Source: Patescibacteria group bacterium (GTDB lineage: Bacteria; Patescibacteriota; Patescibacteriia; Patescibacteriales; UBA12465). From it: DNA of 64,000 nt. The notes beneath the pieces are model-generated. The model was not told where the DNA came from. It made no database searches and saw only the letters and a list, made by a program, of their open reading frames with translations. Both the position numbers and the translations under genes were made by a program. Shown here in pieces: positions 55,713 through 64,000 of the stretch. Where the stretch lies: NCBI GenBank assembly GCA_041651355.1, contig JBAZJK010000001.1, positions 421,883-485,882 on the forward strand. Direction: 5' to 3'. Within the stretch, counting starts at the first letter, position 1. The number at the start of each line of letters is the position of its first letter.

Positions 55713-56471
55713 TTATTCTTTATTATCCTCAAGAGGCGCCTCCTCAACCTTAACCTCTTCGACTGGCGCTGCTTCTTCAGCTTTGTTTTCTTCAACGGTT
55801 TCAACTACAGGGTTTTCAACGGCCACCTCTTCCGCCTTCGCTTTAACAAAGTTTAATTCGCCCGGAGCCTTGATCATAAGGAAACCATTAACTGCTCCCG
55901 GAACCGCTCCCTGGATATAAATTATGTTATTCTCCTCGTCAATCTTAACGACCGTTAAATTCTTCACTGTCACTCTGACATTCCCCATATGACCAGCCAT
56001 CCTAGTACCTTTAAAGACATGGGCCGGACCTTTCGGACCGATGGAGCCAGGCATGCGCAGCTGGTCTTTATTACCGTGAGTCTTGCGACCACCATGGAAA
56101 CCATGACGTTTGACTACGCCCTGGAAACCTTTACCTTTTGAAGTACCGATAACATCGACTATTTCGCCGTTAGCAAAGCTACTAACTTTAACAAGATCAC
56201 CTAAATCACAAGCCGGGATAGTTTCTACCCTGAATTCCCTTAAGAAACGAGCCTGAGAATTTATTTTTTTCAAATGACCAGCCTGAGGTTTCTTGATATT
56301 CTTAGCCTTCTTTGCGCCCCAAGCTAACTGCAAAGCTTCATAGCCATCCTTATCTTTCGTTTTGATCTGGCTAACTGCACAAGGACCAGCTAAAATCGGG
56401 GTCACGGCGATTACTCGGTCGTTCTCCCAAAGCTGAGTCATATTTAATTTTTTACCTAAAATGAATTTCAT
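55713..56471 (-). CDS. rplC: 50S ribosomal protein L3 (acidic C-terminal tail)
   Basis: GTSKGKGFQGVVKRHGFHGG...GNVRVTVKNL, with the tail EEVAVENPVVETVEENKAEEAAPVEEVKVEE. Confidence 0.95.
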   Translation of the reverse strand: MKFILGKKLNMTQLWENDRVIAVTPILAGPCAVSQIKTKDKDGYEALQLAWGAKKAKNIKKPQAGHLKKINSQARFLREFRVETIPACDLGDLVKVSSFANGEIVDVIGTSKGKGFQGVVKRHGFHGGRKTHGNKDQLRMPGSIGPKGPAHVFKGTRMAGHMGNVRVTVKNLTVVKIDEENNIIYIQGAVPGAVNGFLMIKAPGELNFVKAKAEEVAVENPVVETVEENKAEEAAPVEEVKVEEAPLEDNKE

Positions 56472-56477
56472 AGAAAT

Positions 56478-56564
56478 AATAAAAAACTGGTCCGCGTGAC
56501 CAGCCTTAAAAATTCCAAAAAATTAAAGAAATTTAACTTTGTTGTGAATTTATGTTTGGCTGGT
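56478..56564 (-). promoter_or_regulatory. Candidate transcription attenuator (terminator plus alternative antiterminator pairing) between rpsJ and rplC
   Basis: Minus strand has CTGGTC-acgcg-GACCAG followed by TTTTTTATT, ending about 7 nt before the rplC ATG. An upstream ACCAGCC (56564..56558) can pair with GGCTGGT (56505..56499), which overlaps the 5' terminator arm. Confidence 0.45.
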
Positions 56565-56689
56565 AACCTCCGCTGTGACGCCGCTTCTGCCTTAAACACT
56601 TTCCAAATTTATAGAGTTATTTAAGATGTAACGGCTGTTTTTTGGTAAAATTTATTTTAAATTAGCAAAATACTTGCTTTCCTTATATA

Positions 56690-57028
56690 TTACTGCATTT
56701 TTATCTCTAAGTCAACACCGGCTGGCAAGTTCAGATTTGTCAAATCTTCGATCGTCTTAGCTGAAGGATCGATAATATCGACCAAACGCTTATGAATGCG
56801 CATCTCGTACTGATCACGAGCATCCTTATGAACGAAGGTTGAACGGTTGACCGTGTATTTCTTCTTCTCGGTTGGCAAAGGAATCGGTCCAAAAATAACC
56901 GCATCGCTCCTTTGGGCAGTTTCAATAATGGTCTTGGTAGACTGATCAATGATCTTATGATCAAAAGCTTTGATCTTGATCCTGATTTTCTGTTTAAAAT
57001 CTTTGTCTTCTTTCTTGTTTTCCGACAT
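56690..57028 (-). CDS. rpsJ: 30S ribosomal protein S10
   Basis: [16 protein letters not shown]...[36 protein letters not shown]. Confidence 0.95.
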
Positions 57029-57044
57029 AGTTAATTTTCTTTAA

Positions 57045-57080
57045 ATAAACACTACAAACCCGCCCATAGGCATGAGCGGG
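57045..57080 (-). terminator. Hairpin after tuf
   Basis: Minus strand has ACCCGC-N11-GCGGGT followed by the T-rich TTGTAGTGTTTATTT. Confidence 0.4.
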
Positions 57081-57089
57081 TCAAAGTGA

Positions 57090-58277
57090 TTATTTGATAA
57101 TCTTGGTCACCACGCCGGCGCCGACAGTGCGGCCGCCTTCGCGGATAGCGAATCTCATCTTATCTTCCAAAGCGATCGGAGCGATCAGCTTGATAGTTAA
57201 GTTGACGGTATCGCCAGGCATAACCATTTCTGTACCAGCTGGTAATTCAATCTCACCAGTAACATCGGTGGTACGGATATAGAATTGTGGTTTATAGCCT
57301 TTGAAGAATGGTTTATGACGGCCACCTTCGTCTTTACCTAAGACATAGACCTCGGCTTCGAATTCGGTATGCGGAGTGATTGAACCCGGTTTGCATAAAA
57401 CCTGGCCGCGTTCGACTTCGTTCTTCTTGGTACCACGAAGTAATAAACCGGCGTTGTCACCAGCGCGACCTTCGTCTAACTGCTTGTTAAACATTTCCAC
57501 TCCAGTAACGGTGGTCTTTTTGGTATCCATTAAGCCAACGATTTCAACTTCGTCACCAACTTTGATGATACCTCTGTCGATACGGCCAGTGACAACGGTG
57601 CCACGACCTTCGATAGAAAAGATATCTTCTACCGGCATTAAGAAAGGTTTATCAACGTCTCTCTTAGGTTCCGGGATGTAGGTATCTAAAGCTTCCATTA
57701 ATTTTAAGATCGGTTCATTATCCGGACCAGTCGGATTTTCCAAAGCTTTTAAAGCACTGCCACGGATAATCGGAGTGGTGTCACCCGGGAATTCATATTT
57801 CTTCAATAAGTCGCGGATTTCCTCTTCGACCAAGTCGATGAGTTCTTTATCCTCGACCATATCACACTTGTTCAAGAAAACGATGATGTAAGGGACACCG
57901 ACCTGACGAGCAAGCACAATGTGTTCGCGAGTCTGAGGCATAGGGCCGTCAGTAGCCGATACGACTAAAACTGCGCCATCCATCTGAGCGGCGCCGGTAA
58001 TCATGTTCTTAACATAATCGGCGTGGCCCGGACAGTCGACGTGAGCATAATGACGAGCATCAGATTCGTATTCGACGTGGGCGGTAGCAATGGTAATGCC
58101 GCGCTCTCTTTCTTCAGGAGCGGCATCAATTTCATTAACGCCTTTCTTAGAGGCTTTCATGCCTTTGGCGTTAAACACCGCCAACATCGCGGCGGTTAAG
58201 GTAGTTTTCCCATGGTCGACGTGACCGATAGTGCCAACGTTGACATGGGGCTTAGTGCGTTCAAATTTTTCTGCCAT
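57090..58277 (-). CDS. tuf: Elongation factor Tu
   Basis: [26 protein letters not shown]...DCPGH...NKCD. The tracked start at 58298 is a TTG that adds 7 non-conserved residues, so I use the ATG at 58277. Confidence 0.97.
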
Positions 58278-58366
58278 GTTATTGCTTACGGCCCCCAAAT
58301 CGGGGTTTTCTCCTCTAGGGAAACCAGCCGTTTTAAATTAAAATTTTATTTTATATTAAATAAAAA

Positions 58367-58690
58367 TTACTCTATTTTCTTAGCTCCGCTCTTAATATCC
58401 GGCGGAATCTTCCAACTTGGCCGCGGACGGCTTTCTTCTTCTAAAAACTCGCTATTTTCCTGGTTTTTCCACATCAGAATCTCGCGATTTATTTTATCAG
58501 TTAAATCTTCATCTGTCAAATTTTTAGATTTTGGCTGATTATCGCTGATTTTATCCCCAGAAATTAGCTTTTCATAAGCTTCGAAATCAACGAGCACGAC
58601 GGTATCATCCGGAGACTGGCTATCAAAGAAAACGATTTTATCACCAGTTTTTTTTACTAACCTTATAGCTTTTTTTAACTGGTCTAACAT
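58367..58690 (-). CDS. Hypothetical acidic protein (107 aa) inserted between fusA and tuf
   Basis: Clean ORF. The N-terminus KTGDKIVFFDSQSPDDTVVLVDFEAYEKL resembles the Phd/YefM antitoxin fold pattern (weak, from recollection). Confidence 0.55.
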   Translation of the reverse strand: MLDQLKKAIRLVKKTGDKIVFFDSQSPDDTVVLVDFEAYEKLISGDKISDNQPKSKNLTDEDLTDKINREILMWKNQENSEFLEEESRPRPSWKIPPDIKSGAKKIE

Positions 58691-58756
58691 ATGTTTATAT
58701 TTTAGCCCTCCTTGATGTTACTACATTTTAGCAGGCCGGAGAACTTAGTTCAAGGC

Positions 58757-60835
58757 TTAGCGACCGCTCTTCTCCTTAATGCTCTCTAAGATATTCCTTG
58801 GCACTTCAGCATAGTGGGAGAATTCCATAGAATAATTAGCTCGGCCTTGGCTCATCGATCTTAAAGAGGTGGAATAGCCGAACATTTCTGCCAAAGGAAC
58901 TTTAGCTTTAATAACTTTGGTTTTGGAACGATCAGTCATCTCATCAATCTGGCCGCGCTTAGCGTTTAAGTCACCGATGATATTACCCATGTATTCCTCT
59001 GGGGTGGTTACCTCGACTTTCATCACCGGCTCTAACAAATAAGCGCCCGCTTTCTGACAAGCATCCTTGAAGGCAAAGATAGCGGCCATCTTGAAAGCGA
59101 TTTCCGAAGAGTCGACCTCATGATAACTACCGTCGAAGACGGCCACCTTGATATCAACCATTGGATAACCAGCCAACACGCCACCCTGGATCGCTTCCTT
59201 AACGCCTTTTTCAATCGCCGGGATAAATTCACGTGGAATGACGCCACCTTTAACTTCATCGACAAACTCATAACCCTTGCCCTGCTCTTGCGGTTCAACT
59301 CGCAAATAACAATGCCCGTATTGGCCGCGACCGCCAGATTGCTTAGCATATTTATGCTCGGCTTGAGCCGTGGTCTTAATAGTTTCACGATATGATACTT
59401 GAGGCTTGCCGACATTAGCTTCGACGCCGAATTCCCTCTTCATGCGGTCGACGATAATTTCTAAGTGTAATTCACCCATACCAGAAATCAAAACTTGGTT
59501 AGTTTCTTCATCGGTTTCAACCCTAAAAGTTGGGTCTTCTTCGGCTAAACGTGATAGGGCTACGCCCATCTTTTCTTGGTCAGCCTTAGTCTTCGGTTCA
59601 ACCGCGATCTTGATAACCGGTTCCGGGAAAGTAATAGATTCAAGTAACAAAGGATTACTCTCATCGCATAAAGTGTTGCCGGTAGTAGTATTTTTCAAAC
59701 CGATAATAGCGGCGATATCGCCCGCATAAATCTCTTTAATTTCTTCCCGATGATTGGCATGCATACGGACCAAACGACCGATACGCTCTTTATTGCCGGT
59801 AGATGAATTAATGATATAGGAGCCAGCTCTTAAAACGCCCTGGTAAACACGAACAAAACATAGTTTGCCGACAAAAGGATCAGTCGCGATCTTGAAAGCT
59901 AAACCAGCAAAAGAAGCGTTATCATCTGATTTGATCGGATATTTCTTTTCCGGGTCGCGTACGTCAGTCGCTTCAATTTCCGGAATGTCTAAAGGTGAAG
60001 GCAAAAACTCGCAAACTGCATCCAAAACCAATTGGACGCCGATATTCTGCAGAGCGGTCCCACATAAAACTGGATAAATCTGGTTGGCGATGACGCCTTT
60101 TCTGATAGCGGCGCGATATTCCTCTTCAGAAATAGCTTCGCCGTTTAAATACTTCTCAGTCAAAACTTCGTCGCATTCAGCTACTTTTTCCACCATGATA
60201 TTGTGGTATTCATTAACTTTAGCGACCATATCTTCTGGAATAGCGATTTCTTCAATCTTCTCACCGAAATTACCCGAGAATTTATAGGCTTTTTTGGTTA
60301 ATAAATCGATTACGCCGCTTAATTCAGATTCAGCCCCGATCGGTAATTGGATAGCAACGGCATTATTATTTAAACGATTCTTGATAGAATCAAGACTCAT
60401 ATAGAAATCAGCCCCCATCTTATCCATCTTATTCACGAAACAGAGGCGAGGCACCTGATATTTATCAGCCTGGCGCCAAACGGTTTCAGACTGCGGCTCT
60501 ACCCCGGCCTGGCCGTCGAAAACCGCTACCGCACCGTCTAAGACGCGCAAAGAGCGTTCTACTTCAACCGTAAAATCAACGTGTCCGGGGGTGTCGATAA
60601 TATTAATCTTGTTGTCGCGCCAAAAACAAGTAGTGGCGGCGGAGGTAATCGTGATTCCCCGTTCTTTTTCCTGTTCCATCCAATCCATTTCCGCTGCGCC
60701 CTCGTGGACTTCGCCAATCTTATGCTTTTTACCGGTGTAGAATAAGACGCGCTCGGTAAAGGTAGTTTTGCCGGCATCGATGTGAGCCATGATACCGATA
60801 TTTCTAATTTTATCTAAGGAATAATCTCGGGGCAT
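58757..60835 (-). CDS. fusA: Elongation factor G
   Basis: [16 protein letters not shown]...DTPGHVDF...NKMD, 692 aa. Confidence 0.97.
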
Positions 60836-60863
60836 ATTTTATAAAAAATTAAGCTTAAATTAA

Positions 60864-61331
60864 TTAACGAGAAAAATGGGCGAAAGCCTTGTTGGCTTCG
60901 GCCATGCGATGGACGGCTTCGCGCTTCTTAACCGCTGCCCCTTCGCCATTAGAGGCGTCTAAGATCTCAGTCGCTAACTTTTCCGCCATAGAGTGCCCTT
61001 TGCGTTCTAAAGCGGCCTTGATCATCCAATTACAGCCCAAGAAATAGCGTCTTTCACCTCTAACCTGGAAAGGTACCTGGTAGTTGGCCCCGCCGACGCG
61101 CTTGCCGCGTACTTCCACTAAAGGAGAAACTTTCTTCACGGCTTTATTGAAAATATGGCGCGGATCTTGCTTGGTCTTGTCTTTGATAATATTAAAAGCA
61201 CCATAGACGATCATTTCGGCTCTAGTTTTCTTGCCTCTTTCCATCACATAATTGATGAATTTAGCAATGTTCTTGTCGTTGTATTTTAGGTCGCCCTCGA
61301 TTTTTCTCTTAGGCGCTGGTTTTCCTCTCAT
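60864..61331 (-). CDS. rpsG: 30S ribosomal protein S7
   Basis: VEVRGKRVGGANYQVP...AFAHFSR-type C-terminus, with the str operon position. Confidence 0.95.
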   Translation of the reverse strand: MRGKPAPKRKIEGDLKYNDKNIAKFINYVMERGKKTRAEMIVYGAFNIIKDKTKQDPRHIFNKAVKKVSPLVEVRGKRVGGANYQVPFQVRGERRYFLGCNWMIKAALERKGHSMAEKLATEILDASNGEGAAVKKREAVHRMAEANKAFAHFSR

Positions 61332-61392
61332 ATTTTAGGCACCCTTGATTTATAGCTATCTAAACCAGGGTCTTATTTATGGTTAATTATTA

Positions 61393-61815
61393 TTAAGCTT
61401 TTTTAGGTTTCTTGGCCCCATAGCAGCTGCGGCCCTGGCGTCTAGCATCTACACCCTGAGCGTCATATACCCCGCGGACAACTTTGTAGCGGACACCTGG
61501 CAGATCCTTGGTTTTACCGCCTTTGATCAAGACGATCGAGTGCTCCTGTAAATTATGGCCCATACCAGGGATATAAGCGGTTACTTCCATGCCGTTAGAC
61601 AGGCGAACGCGAGCGATCTTGCGTAAAGCGGAGTTCGGCTTCTTCGGAGTGGTGGTAGTAACTTTAAGACATACGCCCTGCTTAAAAGGAGCGCCTTTGG
61701 CCGTTACTTTTTTCTTGCGGTGCAAAGAATCAAAACTAGTATGCAAAACCAGGCTTTTCTTAGCCTTTTTAGCGTTTTTGCGACCATGTTTAATCAGCTG
61801 ATTAATGGTTGGCAT
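61393..61815 (-). CDS. rpsL: 30S ribosomal protein S12
   Basis: [12 protein letters not shown]...[11 protein letters not shown]...[27 protein letters not shown]. Confidence 0.97.
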
Positions 61816-61914
61816 AAAAATTTAAAATAAAAATTGCGAATTATAGTTAAATTCGTTTTGGTTTAAATATTAAAACAATCCTGAGCTATCAGGATGTATT
61901 TTTATTACTTAATA

Positions 61915-61943
61915 AATTTAACAAAATTAAAATGATAAGTCAA
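61915..61943 (-). promoter_or_regulatory. Candidate str-operon promoter
   Basis: Minus strand reads TTGACT-N17-TAAATT, about 100 nt upstream of rpsL. Confidence 0.35.
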
Positions 61944-62044
61944 GACAATCAAGGATAAATGATTTTAAAAACAAGTTTTACTCAATTAGCCGAACCGATG
62001 GCCTTAAAAGATCGGATTAAACCGATTATTACCAATAAATTATA

Positions 62045-62073
62045 TTGACTAATATGTCAATATATATTATAAT
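62045..62073 (+). promoter_or_regulatory. Near-consensus sigma70 promoter on the + strand, firing antisense into the RT gene toward avd
   Basis: TTGACT-N17-TATAAT. The -35 is part of the palindrome ATTGAC-taatat-GTCAAT (62043..62060). It lies 3 nt outside the RT stop codon. Confidence 0.45.
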
Positions 62074-62075
62074 GT

Positions 62076-63062
62076 TTAGTCAAGCAAATTCAAACTCTGT
62101 CTCAACTTATAAGAATCGCCATGCTTCAGCATTCCTTTATAAGAAGCTAGGGTGACCGGATGGGGACTAGCCGATATTTTCTTAATCATCCTCTTTTTTG
62201 TGACTGTCCTGATGACCCGATGGTCGCCAAACTCGACCCAACCCAAGAAATCGGAACCGCTGGTCAAAGTTTTTAGGGAAACTTTCTTGGGATGCAGGGA
62301 TAATTTTAATTCACTCTCTAAAAAACGAACAAGCTTCGACAATAGCCCGACTAGGTCTTCCCGATCCGAACTTAAAATCAAAAAATCATCGGCATAGCGG
62401 ATATAATATTTAATCCTCAAAGTCCTTTTCACGAATTGATCGAACTCGTTCAGATAAACATTGACCAGGAGCTGCGAAGTTAGATTCCCCAGAGGCAGGC
62501 CGACGCCCGGCCGGCCTGAGGTAGCAAAACTATCTATTACCCGGCCGAAAAGCCAAAGCAGGTCCTGATCCTCAATATATTTTGCCAGCAGACCCTTCAA
62601 CACTTCATGATCGATACTGGCAAAAAATTTCCGGATATCACCTTTCAGGATCCAGGCCGTGTGCCGGCCATTACGGGAAGCCCGGTGGGCATCCGCTCGG
62701 AATCTATAGATAGCGCGATGAGTCCCTTTTTCCAAACGACAAGAAAAAGAGTCGGCAATGAAACGACGATCAAAATAGGTATAAGTTTCCCGGTAAAGCA
62801 GATGGTGCAAAAGCCGATCGCGGACGGTCGCCTTATGAATATTTCGCGGCTTAGGATCAGAAATATTGAAAGCTTGATAGGGGTCATGGTAATAGGTCTT
62901 GATCGCCAGCTCTTCTCTCAACTTCTGGATATTATCCATCAAGCGACCCTGGAATAAGGCAACATCCCGGCGCCGAGATTTGCCGGCTAAAAATTCTTTC
63001 CAGGCTAGCAGCAGGTTTTCTAGGCTGATTATTTCTTGATAGCTTTTACTAAATTTTTTCAT
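62076..63062 (-). CDS. DGR-type reverse transcriptase
   Basis: 328 aa. LLAWKEFLAGKSRRRDV; DPKPRNIHKATVRDRLLHH; SFSCRLEKGTHRA; LPLGNLTSQLLVNVYL (the [I/L]GxxxSQ DGR hallmark); YIRYADDFLILS (YxDD). No maturase or endonuclease extension. Confidence 0.9.
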   Translation of the reverse strand: MKKFSKSYQEIISLENLLLAWKEFLAGKSRRRDVALFQGRLMDNIQKLREELAIKTYYHDPYQAFNISDPKPRNIHKATVRDRLLHHLLYRETYTYFDRRFIADSFSCRLEKGTHRAIYRFRADAHRASRNGRHTAWILKGDIRKFFASIDHEVLKGLLAKYIEDQDLLWLFGRVIDSFATSGRPGVGLPLGNLTSQLLVNVYLNEFDQFVKRTLRIKYYIRYADDFLILSSDREDLVGLLSKLVRFLESELKLSLHPKKVSLKTLTSGSDFLGWVEFGDHRVIRTVTKKRMIKKISASPHPVTLASYKGMLKHGDSYKLRQSLNLLD

Positions 63063-63078
63063 TTAAACTTATAAAACT

Positions 63079-63447
63079 ATGGCCGTAGCTCTGTTTTCGC
63101 CTCTGGTCCTAGTCCGAAGTAAAGAGGCTTATGCCTTATGGTTTAAGGCCTTGGCTGATTTTCCCAAGGTGTATCGTTATAATCTGGGCGGAAAGATTGA
63201 AGGGTGTTTTTTAGAACTTTTGGAAAAGATTTTCACCACTACCTATTTGGCCCGTGATAGGAAAAGCGACCAACTCTCGCTGGCTATCGTTAAGCTCGAC
63301 CATTTAAAGTTCTTCCTGCAACTAGCCTGGGAAAGCAAATGCCTATCAAATAAAAGCTATGCTGATCTATCGACCCGACTGGACGAAATCGGGCGCATGC
63401 TCGGCGGCTGGAAAAAGGGCTTAGAAATGAAAACTCCCCCAAGATAG
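63079..63447 (+). CDS. avd: Avd-like accessory protein (four-helix bundle, 23S rRNA IVS protein family), opposite strand to RT
   Basis: 122 aa. FPKVYRYNLGGKIEGCFLELLEKI...LKFFLQLAWESKCLSNKSYADLSTRLDEIGRMLGGWKKG matches the Avd/S23-IVS helix pattern and the C-terminal GGW motif. Confidence 0.8.
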   Translation: MAVALFSPLVLVRSKEAYALWFKALADFPKVYRYNLGGKIEGCFLELLEKIFTTTYLARDRKSDQLSLAIVKLDHLKFFLQLAWESKCLSNKSYADLSTRLDEIGRMLGGWKKGLEMKTPPR

Positions 63448-63461
63448 TTGGAGGAGAAAGT

Positions 63462-63590
63462 CATGAGTTGCGGAACGACCACGCGATGACGATAGTCGGC
63501 ATTCCAGACGTTGTCATTCTCAAGCCGGTTGACGTTGACGTTAAGACCATCAGGGTTCACGTTCACGTTGGCCACAAAATAATGTATAGC
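63462..63590 (-). repeat. DGR template repeat (TR); sense strand is minus; 5' (high-coordinate) boundary not determinable because the VR runs off the window
   Basis: 63462..63541 aligns with 63921..64000 (80 nt, 11 mismatches). 9 mismatches are at + strand T, which is TR adenine on the minus strand. The minus frame is rich in AAC/AAT codons (ANVNVNPDGLNVNVNRLENDNVWNADYRH). Confidence 0.85.
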
Positions 63591-63680
63591 GCGCCTTCCC
63601 CGACACCACCGCCCTGACAAAATAAAGAAACGGTTGAATATTACTTGGGACTTAGAAGTCCGCCAGCGCTCCATACCAAC

Positions 63681-63800
63681 TTATGATTTTTGATCCAAAA
63701 TATCCTTCCTCTCCGGCCCGCATTGACCGGCCGAACTCTCAAAAATATTCTGGAACAGCCTCGGCCCATCAGCCTTGACCAATGAGCGATCCGAAACCAT
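63681..63800 (-). CDS. Possible 39-aa ORF at the 5' end of the predicted TR transcript (may be non-coding leader)
   Basis: My translation is MVSDRSLVKADGPRLFQNIFESSAGQCGPERKDILDQKS. The ATG lies 7 nt after the -10 hexamer, so it would be leaderless. No further support. Confidence 0.2.
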   Translation of the reverse strand: MVSDRSLVKADGPRLFQNIFESSAGQCGPERKDILDQKS

Positions 63801-63806
63801 CATTTT

Positions 63807-63835
63807 ATTATATATAAAAATCCCCCGGATGCCAA
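63807..63835 (-). promoter_or_regulatory. Sigma70-type promoter between VR and TR, oriented toward TR and RT
   Basis: Minus strand reads TTGGCA-N17-TATAAT (verified base by base). Confidence 0.5.
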
Positions 63836-63883
63836 GCATTTGGTTTTACTCCAAAGTGCTAAGAATCCGAGGGACAAAGGGTC

Positions 63884-63898
63884 AGCCGCCAAGCGGCT
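63884..63898 (-). promoter_or_regulatory. GC-rich hairpin just downstream of the target gene stop/VR (candidate DGR target-recognition hairpin or terminator)
   Basis: AGCCGC-caa-GCGGCT lies 8 nt from the stop codon and 22 nt from the end of VR homology. No equivalent is present after TR. Confidence 0.5.
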
Positions 63899-63905
63899 CA
63901 AGGTT

Positions 63906-64000
63906 TTAAGAAACTGAGGGCATAAGTTGCGGAACGACCACGCGACGACGACCGTCGGCATCCCAGACGTTGTCATCCTCAAGCCGGCGGACGACGACGC
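63906..64000 (-). CDS. DGR target protein, C-terminal 31 codons only (gene continues beyond window end)
   Basis: The frame is open to the window edge and ends at TAA (63908..63906). It reads ...VVVRRLEDDNVWDADGRRRVVVPQLMPSVS. It is not in the ORF track because it is an edge ORF. Confidence 0.75.
   Translation of the reverse strand, partial: VVVRRLEDDNVWDADGRRRVVVPQLMPSVS
63921..64000 (-). repeat. DGR variable repeat (VR), partial
   Basis: Counterpart of TR 63462..63541. Codon changes are AAC to GTC and CGC, AAT to GAT (twice), CAT to CGT, and TAT to GGT. Confidence 0.85.

Follow-up and report, generated by a model that had tools for sequence, protein, structure and literature searches.

The DNA analyzed here, a 64,000-nt stretch of contig JBAZJK010000001.1 that is referred to as the window, carries a chromosomal DGR of Patescibacteria (CPR) in the B3 layout typical of its class. 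The element is an ordinary member of an already known DGR class, and its layout is normal for CPR. Comparison with related loci suggests that the B3 class probably uses a rearranged DGR RNA, in which protein-binding elements lie 5′ of the template repeat (TR). Read along the minus strand, the locus runs from the target gene with its variable repeat (VR) through a probable terminator, a promoter, a 217-nt structured RNA, the TR, a hairpin with a U-run, and an inverted avd gene to the reverse transcriptase (RT) gene. This order and these strands had been described in the original prediction, and all the features it listed were found where it had placed them. The following features were delineated.

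61878..61895, no strand assigned: palindromic hairpin with T-runs on both strands, terminator-like in either direction
62045..62073, plus strand: P_as, predicted promoter just past the RT stop codon, reading antisense through RT toward avd (TTGACT-17-TATAAT, 11/12)
62076..63062, minus strand: DGR reverse transcriptase, 328 aa (RVT_1, 6.9e-19)
63079..63447, plus strand, opposite to TR and RT: avd (accessory variability determinant), 122 aa (PF22296 bAvd, 4.5e-16)
63424..63456, minus strand: 9-bp hairpin CUCCUCCAA-CUAUC-UUGGGGGAG, then UUUUCAUUUC, terminator-like
63462..63580, minus strand: TR, with a firm 3′ end and a 5′ boundary (~63580) taken from relatives because the window end cuts the VR
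63584..63800, minus strand: structured 5′ domain of the template RNA (RNAalifold, 52 loci; the single-sequence fold agrees)
63807..63835, minus strand: P_TR, predicted promoter of the template RNA (TTGGCA-17-TATAAT, 11/12)
63814..63873, minus strand: long hairpin CCCUCGGAU...AUCCGGGGG with a U-run, its inner part scored terminator-like
63825..63851, plus strand: hairpin with a T-run, terminator-like, the sole such plus-strand site from 62073 to the window end
63884..63898, minus strand: short GC-rich hairpin AGCCGC-TTG-GCGGCT, ~20 nt downstream of the VR, read from the sequence
63921..64000, minus strand: 3′ part of the VR of the target gene, a direct repeat of the TR; the gene continues past the window end

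The locus combines an RT of the DGR clade, a TR/VR pair differing mainly at TR adenines, and Avd, which together identify it as a DGR. In a PDB search, the closest solved structure to the RT is Bordetella phage bRT (8ub7_A, 4.5e-35), while group II and retron-type RTs score ~1e-17. The RT translation displays YADD and LTSQ motifs. Avd passes the cut-off of PF22296 (59.7 bits against 40) but stays below that of NF033474 DivGenRetAVD (2.8e-19, 69 bits; model cut-off 80), and it has no PDB sequence match at E 0.01. The avd and RT start codons are divergent with 16 nt between them (63063..63078), confirming the spacing originally reported.

The TR (63462-63540) and the VR (63921-63999) are 87% identical across 79 nt, which is all of the VR (its 3′ part) that the window contains. 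Eight of the ten mismatches fall at minus-sense TR adenines. Of the remaining two, 63494 is a T in the TR and 63465 belongs to the IMH-like end. Among relatives, the VR ends 2-63 nt ahead of the stop codon in ORFs of 214-646 aa, and the target proteins of seven relatives contain no Pfam domain. For the target gene of the window, look-ups by exact protein yielded nothing but a 1977-nt Logan contig, which stops short of the VR, and an exact 62-nt scan of metagenome contigs gave no match. The long hairpin at 63814..63873 is the probable terminator of this gene. Its 3′ arm contains the -35 box of the TR promoter, and the hairpin and T-run are also present in the subclade alignment. The short hairpin at 63884..63898 is an insertion relative to aligned relatives and is thus specific to the window.

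Whether the layout had already been catalogued was left unanswered by the original prediction. It corresponds to Architecture B3, TR-(avd)-RT, which makes up 90% of the CPR DGR set according to the accessible part of Wu et al. (2018; NAR 46:11; PMC5758913). The window DGR shows the TR-(avd)-RT order, a reverse-strand avd, no other accessory gene, and a CPR host. The proposed comparison with related genomes shows avd inverted and immediately adjacent to RT in every genome relative that has upstream sequence (76/76), and also in a viral relative, L083. In ~62 loci, TR and RT point the same way, with 0-30 nt between the TR end and the avd stop codon. The related loci all come from CPR-type MAGs (80/80), and the identical RT protein, P0001, is named by NCBI as that of a Patescibacteria group bacterium MAG. 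L083 is the only viral relative found in IMG/VR, indicating a mostly cellular clade.

These comparisons also bear on a trivial explanation of the layout, namely that homologues carry a co-oriented avd and that misassembly inverted the gene in the contig, the breakpoints being 63063-63078 and 63448-63461. The inverted avd appears in 76 independent genome assemblies out of 76 and in the viral contig, and the gene order is identical in Logan, where this sequence was assembled independently. No support for an inversion was found, and the explanation can practically be dismissed.

The -10 box of P_TR lies ~217 nt from the TR, and the intervening region folds into a conserved domain with five helices, all on the minus strand.

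H1: 63786-63778 paired with 63773-63765
H2: 63744-63741 and 63735-63726, paired with 63721-63712 and 63707-63704
H3: 63676-63665 paired with 63595-63584, 12 bp
H4: 63661-63658 paired with 63651-63648
H5: 63634-63630 paired with 63612-63608

RNAalifold finds 42 pairs across 52 loci, 37 of them having compensatory changes. Of the 5′ domain cells, 95.6% are paired, compared with 67.1% in shuffled controls and 41-49% with slid partners, and the covariation score of 0.862 (against 0.283) was reached by 0 of 500 shuffles; the 52 leaders are related cassettes, so the shuffle control inflates significance, but the slid-partner control is free of this problem and agrees. In 48 relatives, a median of 2 nt separates the end of the H3 3′ arm from the start of TR-VR homology, and the partner strand of this TR-edge arm is located ~80 nt upstream. 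An Rfam search of 61300-64000 at E <= 1 gave no match, placing the leader outside the curated families, RT-associated motifs included. The 210-nt leader of the original prediction corresponds to this region of conserved covarying structure.

A leader of this kind might be regulatory, acting as a riboswitch, an attenuator, or the 3′ UTR of the target gene outside the reverse-transcription RNP. Its position between promoter and template, where regulation is common, and the lack of an Rfam match are compatible with such a role. However, the domain accompanies the TR even in loci where the VR and target sit elsewhere (L029, L033, and L035), and H3 ends ~2 nt from the TR-VR boundary, the expected site of the cDNA stop. 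An attenuator would moreover have nothing downstream to control except the template itself. A regulatory leader is accordingly considered quite improbable.

On the other side of the TR, the hairpin at 63424..63456 is a candidate intrinsic terminator, a candidate Avd-binding stem-loop, or both. Its nine pairs, five of them GC, are followed by UUUUCAUUUC and fit the form of a predicted intrinsic terminator. The avd stop codon lies within the hairpin loop. A hairpin with a U-run follows the TR in 61 of 66 relatives, compared with 24% of random windows, suggesting that most TR transcripts may stop ahead of avd. The stems covary among relatives. A further constraint on the U-run comes from the Avd C-terminal tail, whose Lys/Glu codons coincide with it.

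Alternatively, the hairpin could serve purely as an Avd-binding stem-loop, as in Bordetella phage, with transcription passing in full into RT. Handa et al. (bioRxiv 10.1101/2023.10.23.563531) located Avd-binding stem-loops, typically of 9 bp, just 3′ of the TR in 207 of 278 Avd-containing DGRs. The window stem likewise has 9 bp, and no promoter belonging to RT itself was found. Yet the U-run is as conserved as the stem, a GC-rich stem with a U-run being what defines an intrinsic terminator, and binding and terminating are not mutually exclusive. Binding as the only function is possible but doubtful, and we prefer a hairpin at which most template transcripts would end.

The hairpin and U-run could bind Avd without terminating. 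Efficient termination would demand an RT promoter; none was found, and no RT-sense sigma-70-like promoter is conserved among relatives in the TR-to-RT interval. The TATAAG and TATAAA hexamers in the AT-rich 16-nt gap were discarded as promoter candidates, being too near the start codons and, by eye, unconserved.

The 399 nt from the end of the TR to the start of RT are almost entirely antisense to avd. The original prediction saw this interval as a functional spacer RNA dual-coded with Avd and proposed a search for covariation within it. When the TR 3′ end and 150 nt of antisense avd were compared across 47 loci, the post-TR hairpin was the sole consensus structure. No covarying pairs were detected in the 150 nt of antisense avd past the hairpin in these loci, and conservation there is codon-like and codon-periodic. 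The dual-coded spacer thus finds no support in conserved structure beyond the hairpin.

In its complete form, that proposal involves an obligatory minus-strand transcript running through TR, antisense avd, and RT. The TR, the 399 nt, and RT do share one strand. Some read-through would be needed in any case, as no promoter was found between TR and RT, and the antisense-avd RNA of the window folds slightly better than its shuffles (z = -2.1). Against these points stand the restriction of consensus structure to the hairpin, the codon-periodic remainder devoid of covarying pairs, the U-run in 61/66 loci, and the position of the strong covariation upstream of the TR. An obligatory transcript with a functional spacer therefore appears unlikely. 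The more general expectation of a different RNA architecture stands in part: conserved structure unlike that of Bordetella phage is present 5′ of the TR, but the spacer has no conserved structure in the 150 nt compared past the hairpin.

A candidate 4-bp primer pairing of the TR 3′ motif, G[C/A]AA, with the U-run fits most clades but fails in the subclade of the window. The motif varies together with the base interrupting the U-run, a correlation that may reflect only shared ancestry.

The two facing promoters of the original prediction both score 11/12, and judged by score and conservation, both look real rather than due to chance. The whole window contains 11 sites of at least 11/12, compared with an expected 1.07 +/- 0.89, a 10-fold enrichment. 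For P_TR, a TAnnnT box, often TGnTAtAaT, aligns ~225 nt upstream of the TR in 56 of 66 relatives. The -10 box is kept also in L029, L033, and L035, where the VR sits elsewhere. P_as is conserved on a narrower scale. A TTGnnn-N17-(TG)nTATAAT element occurs no more than ~35 nt from the RT stop codon in all ten loci of the subclade (10/10), whose flanks are otherwise unalignable, and is absent from the same position in other clades (~57 other relatives). No other plus-strand site near P_as exceeds 9/12, in agreement with its description as the only strong plus-strand promoter nearby.

From P_as to avd, no conserved avd promoter, plus-strand terminator, or conserved antisense ORF was found. A hidden antisense gene within RT was also rejected; the antisense frames are unconserved and are missing in L007, L008, and L011. 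A transcript from P_as would meet its first predicted stop at the hairpin 63825..63851, past the antisense TR and the antisense leader. In the opposite direction, the RT-sense unit probably ends at the palindromic hairpin 61878..61895, which lies upstream of an rpsL promoter-like site (61867..61840). The transcription units would be convergent and overlapping, as originally proposed, in the subclade of the window; P_as is confined to this one subclade and is not a feature of the class. In other clades, a poly-G or (GA)n tract is present at the avd/RT junction. The ten subclade loci have neither this repeat tract nor the RT-internal -10-like box found in other clades.

P_as could instead be incidental, having arisen by chance in AT-rich DNA or belonging to the control region of the neighboring rpsL operon, with avd transcribed from an unrecognized promoter nearby. 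The surrounding region is 22% GC, a -10 box on the minus strand (ATTATAAT) overlaps that of P_as, and ~57 other relatives have no such site. However, 260 nt of the same composition as 61816-62075 would contain a site of at least 11/12 with a probability of only 0.03. In addition, the 10/10 subclade loci keep TTG-N17-(TG)nTATAAT although the DNA beyond is unrelated, and these same loci lack the junction tract and the RT-internal box. An incidental P_as is thus rather improbable, and a role in avd expression within the subclade is preferred.

Taken as a whole, a model combining a discrete P_TR template RNA, a permuted RNA architecture, read-through expression of RT, and P_as-driven avd seems to us somewhat better than an even bet. 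P_TR would generate a discrete template RNA of ~375 nt, ending mostly at the post-TR hairpin and U-run. The conserved 5′ domain would replace the role of the 3′ spacer (Sp) of Bordetella phage. Within it, H3 at the TR 5′ edge would be equivalent to the phage "cPRT Stop" duplex. A stem-loop and an A-rich single strand come next, and RT would be held by the second stem beyond them. The post-TR hairpin would be the counterpart of the Avd-binding stem-loop. The DGR RNA would in effect be circularly permuted, leaving the TR-RT interval free of an RNA role so that an inverted avd can occupy it. RT would probably be translated from transcripts that read through the hairpin, and would then be scarce relative to the template. 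In the subclade of the window, avd would be transcribed from P_as beyond the RT stop codon, giving an avd mRNA with a ~1-kb 5′ leader antisense to RT and an excludon-like coupling of the two genes.

A more detailed version for the B3 class is put forward tentatively. The circularly permuted RNA might contain a ~215-nt 5′ domain that stops cDNA synthesis and holds RT, a terminator after the Avd hairpin, and a 3′ end near the priming site, possibly self-priming. Such an RNA would permit the inverted avd, whose expression might be set by devices that differ among lineages (P_as, or a poly-G/(GA)n slippage switch).

The B3 layout itself, catalogued in 2018, will not surprise DGR specialists. In the very large CPR branch of DGRs, an inverted protein gene stands where Bordetella has an essential spacer RNA, and the question at stake is what primes reverse transcription there and what sets its limits. 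The comparative data make this question testable by defining a predicted ~375-nt RNA with five covarying helices upstream of the TR, a boundary helix, and a terminator-like 3′ end. A permuted RNA, if true, would represent a second topology for the mechanism derived from the phage, and would set the minimal RNA for reconstituting CPR DGRs. Predicted cases in which two subunits of a single enzyme complex are coupled through antisense transcription are rare, and the conserved antisense promoter would be one of them. A literature search, in which Handa et al. was covered as a preprint, returned no account of a structured 5′ leader, a post-TR terminator, or an antisense promoter; with coverage so limited, the absence of an earlier description is unproven.

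The CPR B3 cassettes of Wu et al. (2018; PMC5758913), as given in the accessible part of that paper, have the same components and order as the window DGR, a reverse-strand avd abutting RT, and Patescibacteria hosts. Their target proteins likewise have no recognizable domain, and no difference in layout is seen. That part of the paper catalogues gene order and does not mention promoters, a post-TR hairpin and U-run, or a structured RNA 5′ of the TR.

The order of RNA elements in the phage system was described by Handa et al. (bioRxiv 10.1101/2023.10.23.563531). The Bordetella phage BPP-1 DGR is of Architecture B1, with the order mtd/VR, avd, TR, Sp, brt. The window DGR resembles it in A-specific TR-to-VR transfer, in the Avd partner, in an RT closest to bRT, and in a stem-loop immediately 3′ of the TR. 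In both, a duplex at the TR 5′ edge is succeeded on the same strand by a stem-loop, then an A-rich single strand, then another stem; the match between the helices of the leader and the Sp elements of the phage is one of order and position only. In contrast to BPP-1, the window has its avd between TR and RT, in inverted orientation. BPP-1 has a ~140-nt structured spacer with primer and RT-binding elements 3′ of the TR, whereas the window structure is 5′ of it. The partner strand of H3 is upstream of the TR, while that of the phage cPRT Stop is downstream. The 3′ stem-loop of the window, unlike that of BPP-1, is followed by a U-run.

In a retron, msr-msd lies upstream of RT, and priming occurs from a branching G next to the a1/a2 end-pairing. 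Like a retron ncRNA, the predicted template RNA would be a discrete non-coding transcript, driven by a promoter of its own and located upstream of RT, with the structure to be recognized by RT at its 5′ side and the template at its 3′ side. No a1/a2-type end-pairing was found in the window RNA, however, and its product is presumed to be a mutagenized cDNA that replaces the VR rather than msDNA. The RT is also nearer to bRT than to retron-type RTs.

An excludon, as known from Listeria, is a long antisense RNA that doubles as the mRNA of a divergent neighbor. The subclade loci share this arrangement as far as their sequence tells, having a promoter past the 3′ end of RT and a predicted antisense RNA that continues as avd mRNA. 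The genes coupled in this way differ from those of an excludon in that RT and Avd work in one complex and do not have opposed functions.

A complete diversity-generating retroelement (DGR) core lies within the final 2 kb of the window. It comprises genes for a reverse transcriptase (RT) and the accessory variability determinant (avd), together with a template repeat (TR) plus a variable repeat (VR) that is cut off by the window end.

Features of the DGR and its surroundings
62045..62073, plus strand: predicted antisense promoter, TTGACT-17-TATAAT, 11/12
62076..63062, minus strand: RT gene, 328 aa, RVT_1 match at 6.9e-19
63079..63447, plus strand: avd ORF, 122 aa, PF22296 at 59.7 bits, exceeding the cut-off of 40
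63456..63434, minus strand: post-TR hairpin, 9 pairs, tail UUUUCAUUUC
63462-63540, minus sense: TR, 87% identity to the VR at 63921-63999
63835..63807, minus strand: predicted TR promoter, TTGGCA-17-TATAAT, 11/12
63825..63843, plus strand: first terminator-like site after the antisense promoter, past the antisense TR and antisense leader

Among solved structures, the RT is closest to Bordetella phage bRT (8ub7_A, 4.5e-35); group II intron and retron-type RTs match at ~1e-17. An identical RT protein is on record from a Patescibacteria MAG. The Avd protein scores 69 bits with NF033474, under the model cut-off of 80. Eight of the ten TR/VR mismatches fall at adenines of the minus-sense TR. Non-adenine differences occur at 63494 (minus-sense TR T, VR G) and at 63465 (TR C, VR T), 4 nt before the repeat 3′ end; the latter is consistent with an IMH*/IMH difference. 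The minus-strand genes downstream of the DGR are, from ORF translations, rpsL, rpsG, fusA, tuf, rpsJ, and rplC, and the DGR is directly upstream of a str/S10-type ribosomal protein cluster (55713-61815, minus strand). Several DGRs of the Candidate Phyla Radiation (CPR) have ribosomal protein genes inside or beside the cassette (Wu et al., PMC5758913).

The original prediction described avd as inverted between TR and RT, with divergent avd and RT start codons 16 nt apart, and considered this layout non-canonical. The description is accurate, and the layout was already catalogued as Architecture B3, TR-(avd)-RT, where parentheses denote the reverse strand (Wu et al. 2018, PMC5758913). Cassettes whose components are split between strands require two or more transcription units (Wu et al. 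2018, PMC5758913). For comparison, 80 loci with RT relatives (54-68% identity) were collected from GTDB species genomes, all of them CPR-type MAGs. Each of the 76 loci having sequence upstream of RT contains an avd homologue that is opposite in strand to RT and abuts its start; the other four start within 217 nt of RT. In about 62 loci, a TR was located in RT sense with its 3′ end ~0-30 nt from the avd stop codon, and TR-VR mismatches are nearly all at adenines. Among 2.9 million IMG/VR viral contigs, a single relative of the RT clade was found (L083, IMGVR_UViG_3300042876_001093). It shares the avd inversion, the hairpin with its U-run, and the leader motifs, and has a (CT)n tract at the junction. 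A second, independent assembly of this sequence displays the identical order. An assembly inversion of avd is ruled out, since the 76 relatives, the viral relative, and the independent assembly share the layout. The window DGR is an ordinary, further example of a catalogued class.

The target proteins of seven relatives (L002, L005, L007, L011, L012, L020, and L049) are 214-249 aa long in most cases, and a single one reaches 646 aa. The VR ends 2-63 nt ahead of the stop codon in these ORFs, and none of the seven proteins has a Pfam match (E 0.01).

In nearly all loci, UUUCUCC...stem-loop...GGAG begins ~10 nt after TR and leads into UUUU(C/G)UUUU; the avd stop codon is typically within or beside the hairpin loop. 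A simple finder located a hairpin plus T-run after TR in 61/66 loci; among random 90-nt windows drawn from these loci, 24% gave such a hit. An alignment of 47 loci spanned the 3′ end of TR and 150 nt of antisense avd. The consensus contains only the post-TR hairpin, with 7 pairs that each show some compensatory change, and no structure beyond it. The remaining antisense avd displays codon-periodic conservation, for example CCA-NCC-NCC-NAG-CAT, the complement of M-L-G-G-W. Thus, over the span aligned, the covariation sought between TR and RT (63462..63062, minus strand) is confined to the hairpin. The antisense-avd RNA of the window is mildly more stable than its shuffles (z = -2.1).

The codons for the last eight Avd residues (LEMKTPPR; 63424-63447), residues that lie beyond the Pfam domain match, are complementary to the U-run and the 3′ arm of the hairpin. 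In most relatives the avd stop codon lies in the hairpin loop, so the RNA element and the Avd tail are each constrained by the other. Among 47 relatives, the base that interrupts the post-hairpin U-run is correlated with the TR 3′ motif, G[C/A]AA (63424-63433 and 63470-63480 in the window, minus strand). GCAA occurs with G at this base in 12 loci, with A in 6, and with C in a single locus; GAAA occurs with C in 21 loci, with G in 4, and with A in 3. The correlation could reflect a 4-bp template:primer duplex or mere clade ancestry, and the pairing fails in the window's subclade.

No conserved RT-sense promoter is present between TR and RT in any group of loci, so RT would most likely be expressed by read-through of the post-TR hairpin. 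For possible avd expression, the loci show two lineage-specific arrangements. Both promoters named in the original prediction are present, at 63835..63807 and 62045..62073. The window contains 11 sites of at least 11/12, against 1.07 ± 0.89 expected under a first-order Markov model; near-consensus promoter sites exceed the background for this genome. For 260 nt with the composition of 61816-62075 (22% GC), the probability of one such site is 0.03.

In all ten loci of the window's subclade (the window locus, L002-L009, and L011), TTGnnn-N17-(TG)nTATAAT lies antisense to RT, no more than ~35 nt from the RT stop codon and in some loci overlapping it. The DNA past this promoter is unalignable among the ten, and no conserved antisense ORF exists within RT in the subclade. 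As the promoter is conserved and the window has no plus-strand terminator-like site between it and avd, the proposed convergent, overlapping transcription units are plausible in this subclade. The distal promoter is absent from the ~57 other loci, which have a TGaTATCAT box on the avd-sense strand, among the first 50 nt of the RT gene. Whether it acts as a promoter is uncertain, since it derives from conserved D-D-I-I codons plus the palindrome GATATC. In the window, the plus-strand -10 hexamer (62068-62073) also overlaps that of a minus-strand TTGAAT-16-TATAAT (62093..62066), within ATTATAAT. This pair (62066-62093), absent from relatives, forms a symmetric and possibly bidirectional promoter that faces the rpsL operon.

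Outside the subclade (L010, L012-L081), 63/66 relatives carry a simple-repeat tract placed exactly where avd and RT diverge, between their starts or overlapping them (e.g., L049:5963-5971 and L020:5961-5992); the subclade, window included, has none (0/10). It consists of 7-13 nt of poly-G or 10-32 nt of (GA)n/(CT)n. In 62/63 loci the tract leaves the avd frame open, with an in-frame ATG upstream in only ~22. It could function as a phase-variation switch that works by slippage.

The VR-TR interval is conserved in length (median 337 nt); within it, the target gene is followed by a hairpin with a T-run. A -10 box lies ~225 nt upstream of TR (TAnnnT in 56/66 loci, often TGnTAtAaT) and is followed by ~215 nt of strongly conserved sequence. 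This block belongs to the TR unit rather than the target gene, because it is kept in three loci (L029, L033, and L035) where VR is downstream of RT on the other strand. RNAalifold of 52 loci gave 42 pairs in five helices (H1-H5), with compensatory double changes in 37 pairs. Of the alignment cells, 95.6% are paired, versus 67.1% with shuffled partners and 41-49% when partners are slid 1-3 columns. Covariation scores 0.862, versus 0.283 shuffled and at most 0.22 slid, and 0/500 shuffles reach 0.862. The helices are also recovered by a single-sequence fold of the window leader. H3 is a 12-bp long-range helix whose 3′ arm ends a median of 2 nt ahead of the TR-VR homology; inside it lie the short stem-loop H4, the conserved A-rich single strand CAAAUAAnAUACAG, and a further stem, H5. 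The H1 and H2 loops (63778-63765 and 63726-63712, minus strand) contain a similar conserved motif, GGUYAMGGCUU (GGUCAAGGCU and GGUCAAUGCG in the window), which suggests two copies of one putative protein-binding site. No Rfam family matches the leader at E ≤ 1, and a search of the DGR literature found no description of this structured 5′ RNA.

The layout is thus known, and the idea of antisense transcription gains comparative support in one subclade. The proposal of a different RNA architecture gains support from the covarying domain 5′ of TR, not from the antisense-avd spacer between TR and RT where it had been placed. Experimental follow-up is merited for the conserved 5′ domain, the terminator-like element after TR, and the antisense promoter.

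In the Bordetella phage RNA, a short avd segment is followed by TR and an Avd-binding stem-loop, after which the primer, A56 of the spacer RNA (Sp), pairs with the TR 3′ end (Handa et al., bioRxiv 10.1101/2023.10.23.563531). The next Sp strand forms the "cPRT Stop" duplex with the avd segment, at the 5′ edge of TR, and is followed by a small stem-loop, adenosines, the single-stranded "Thumb Ring", and a long bRT-binding stem (bioRxiv 10.1101/2023.10.23.563531). That study surveyed no more than 40 nt on the upstream side of TR and 100 nt on the downstream side (bioRxiv 10.1101/2023.10.23.563531). The CPR RNA has the order H3 5′ strand, H4, A-rich single strand, H5, H3 3′ strand, TR, hairpin, and U-run. 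The phage order, if cut between primer and Stop strand and closed up at its opposite end, would give this arrangement, a correspondence that we infer from order and position only.
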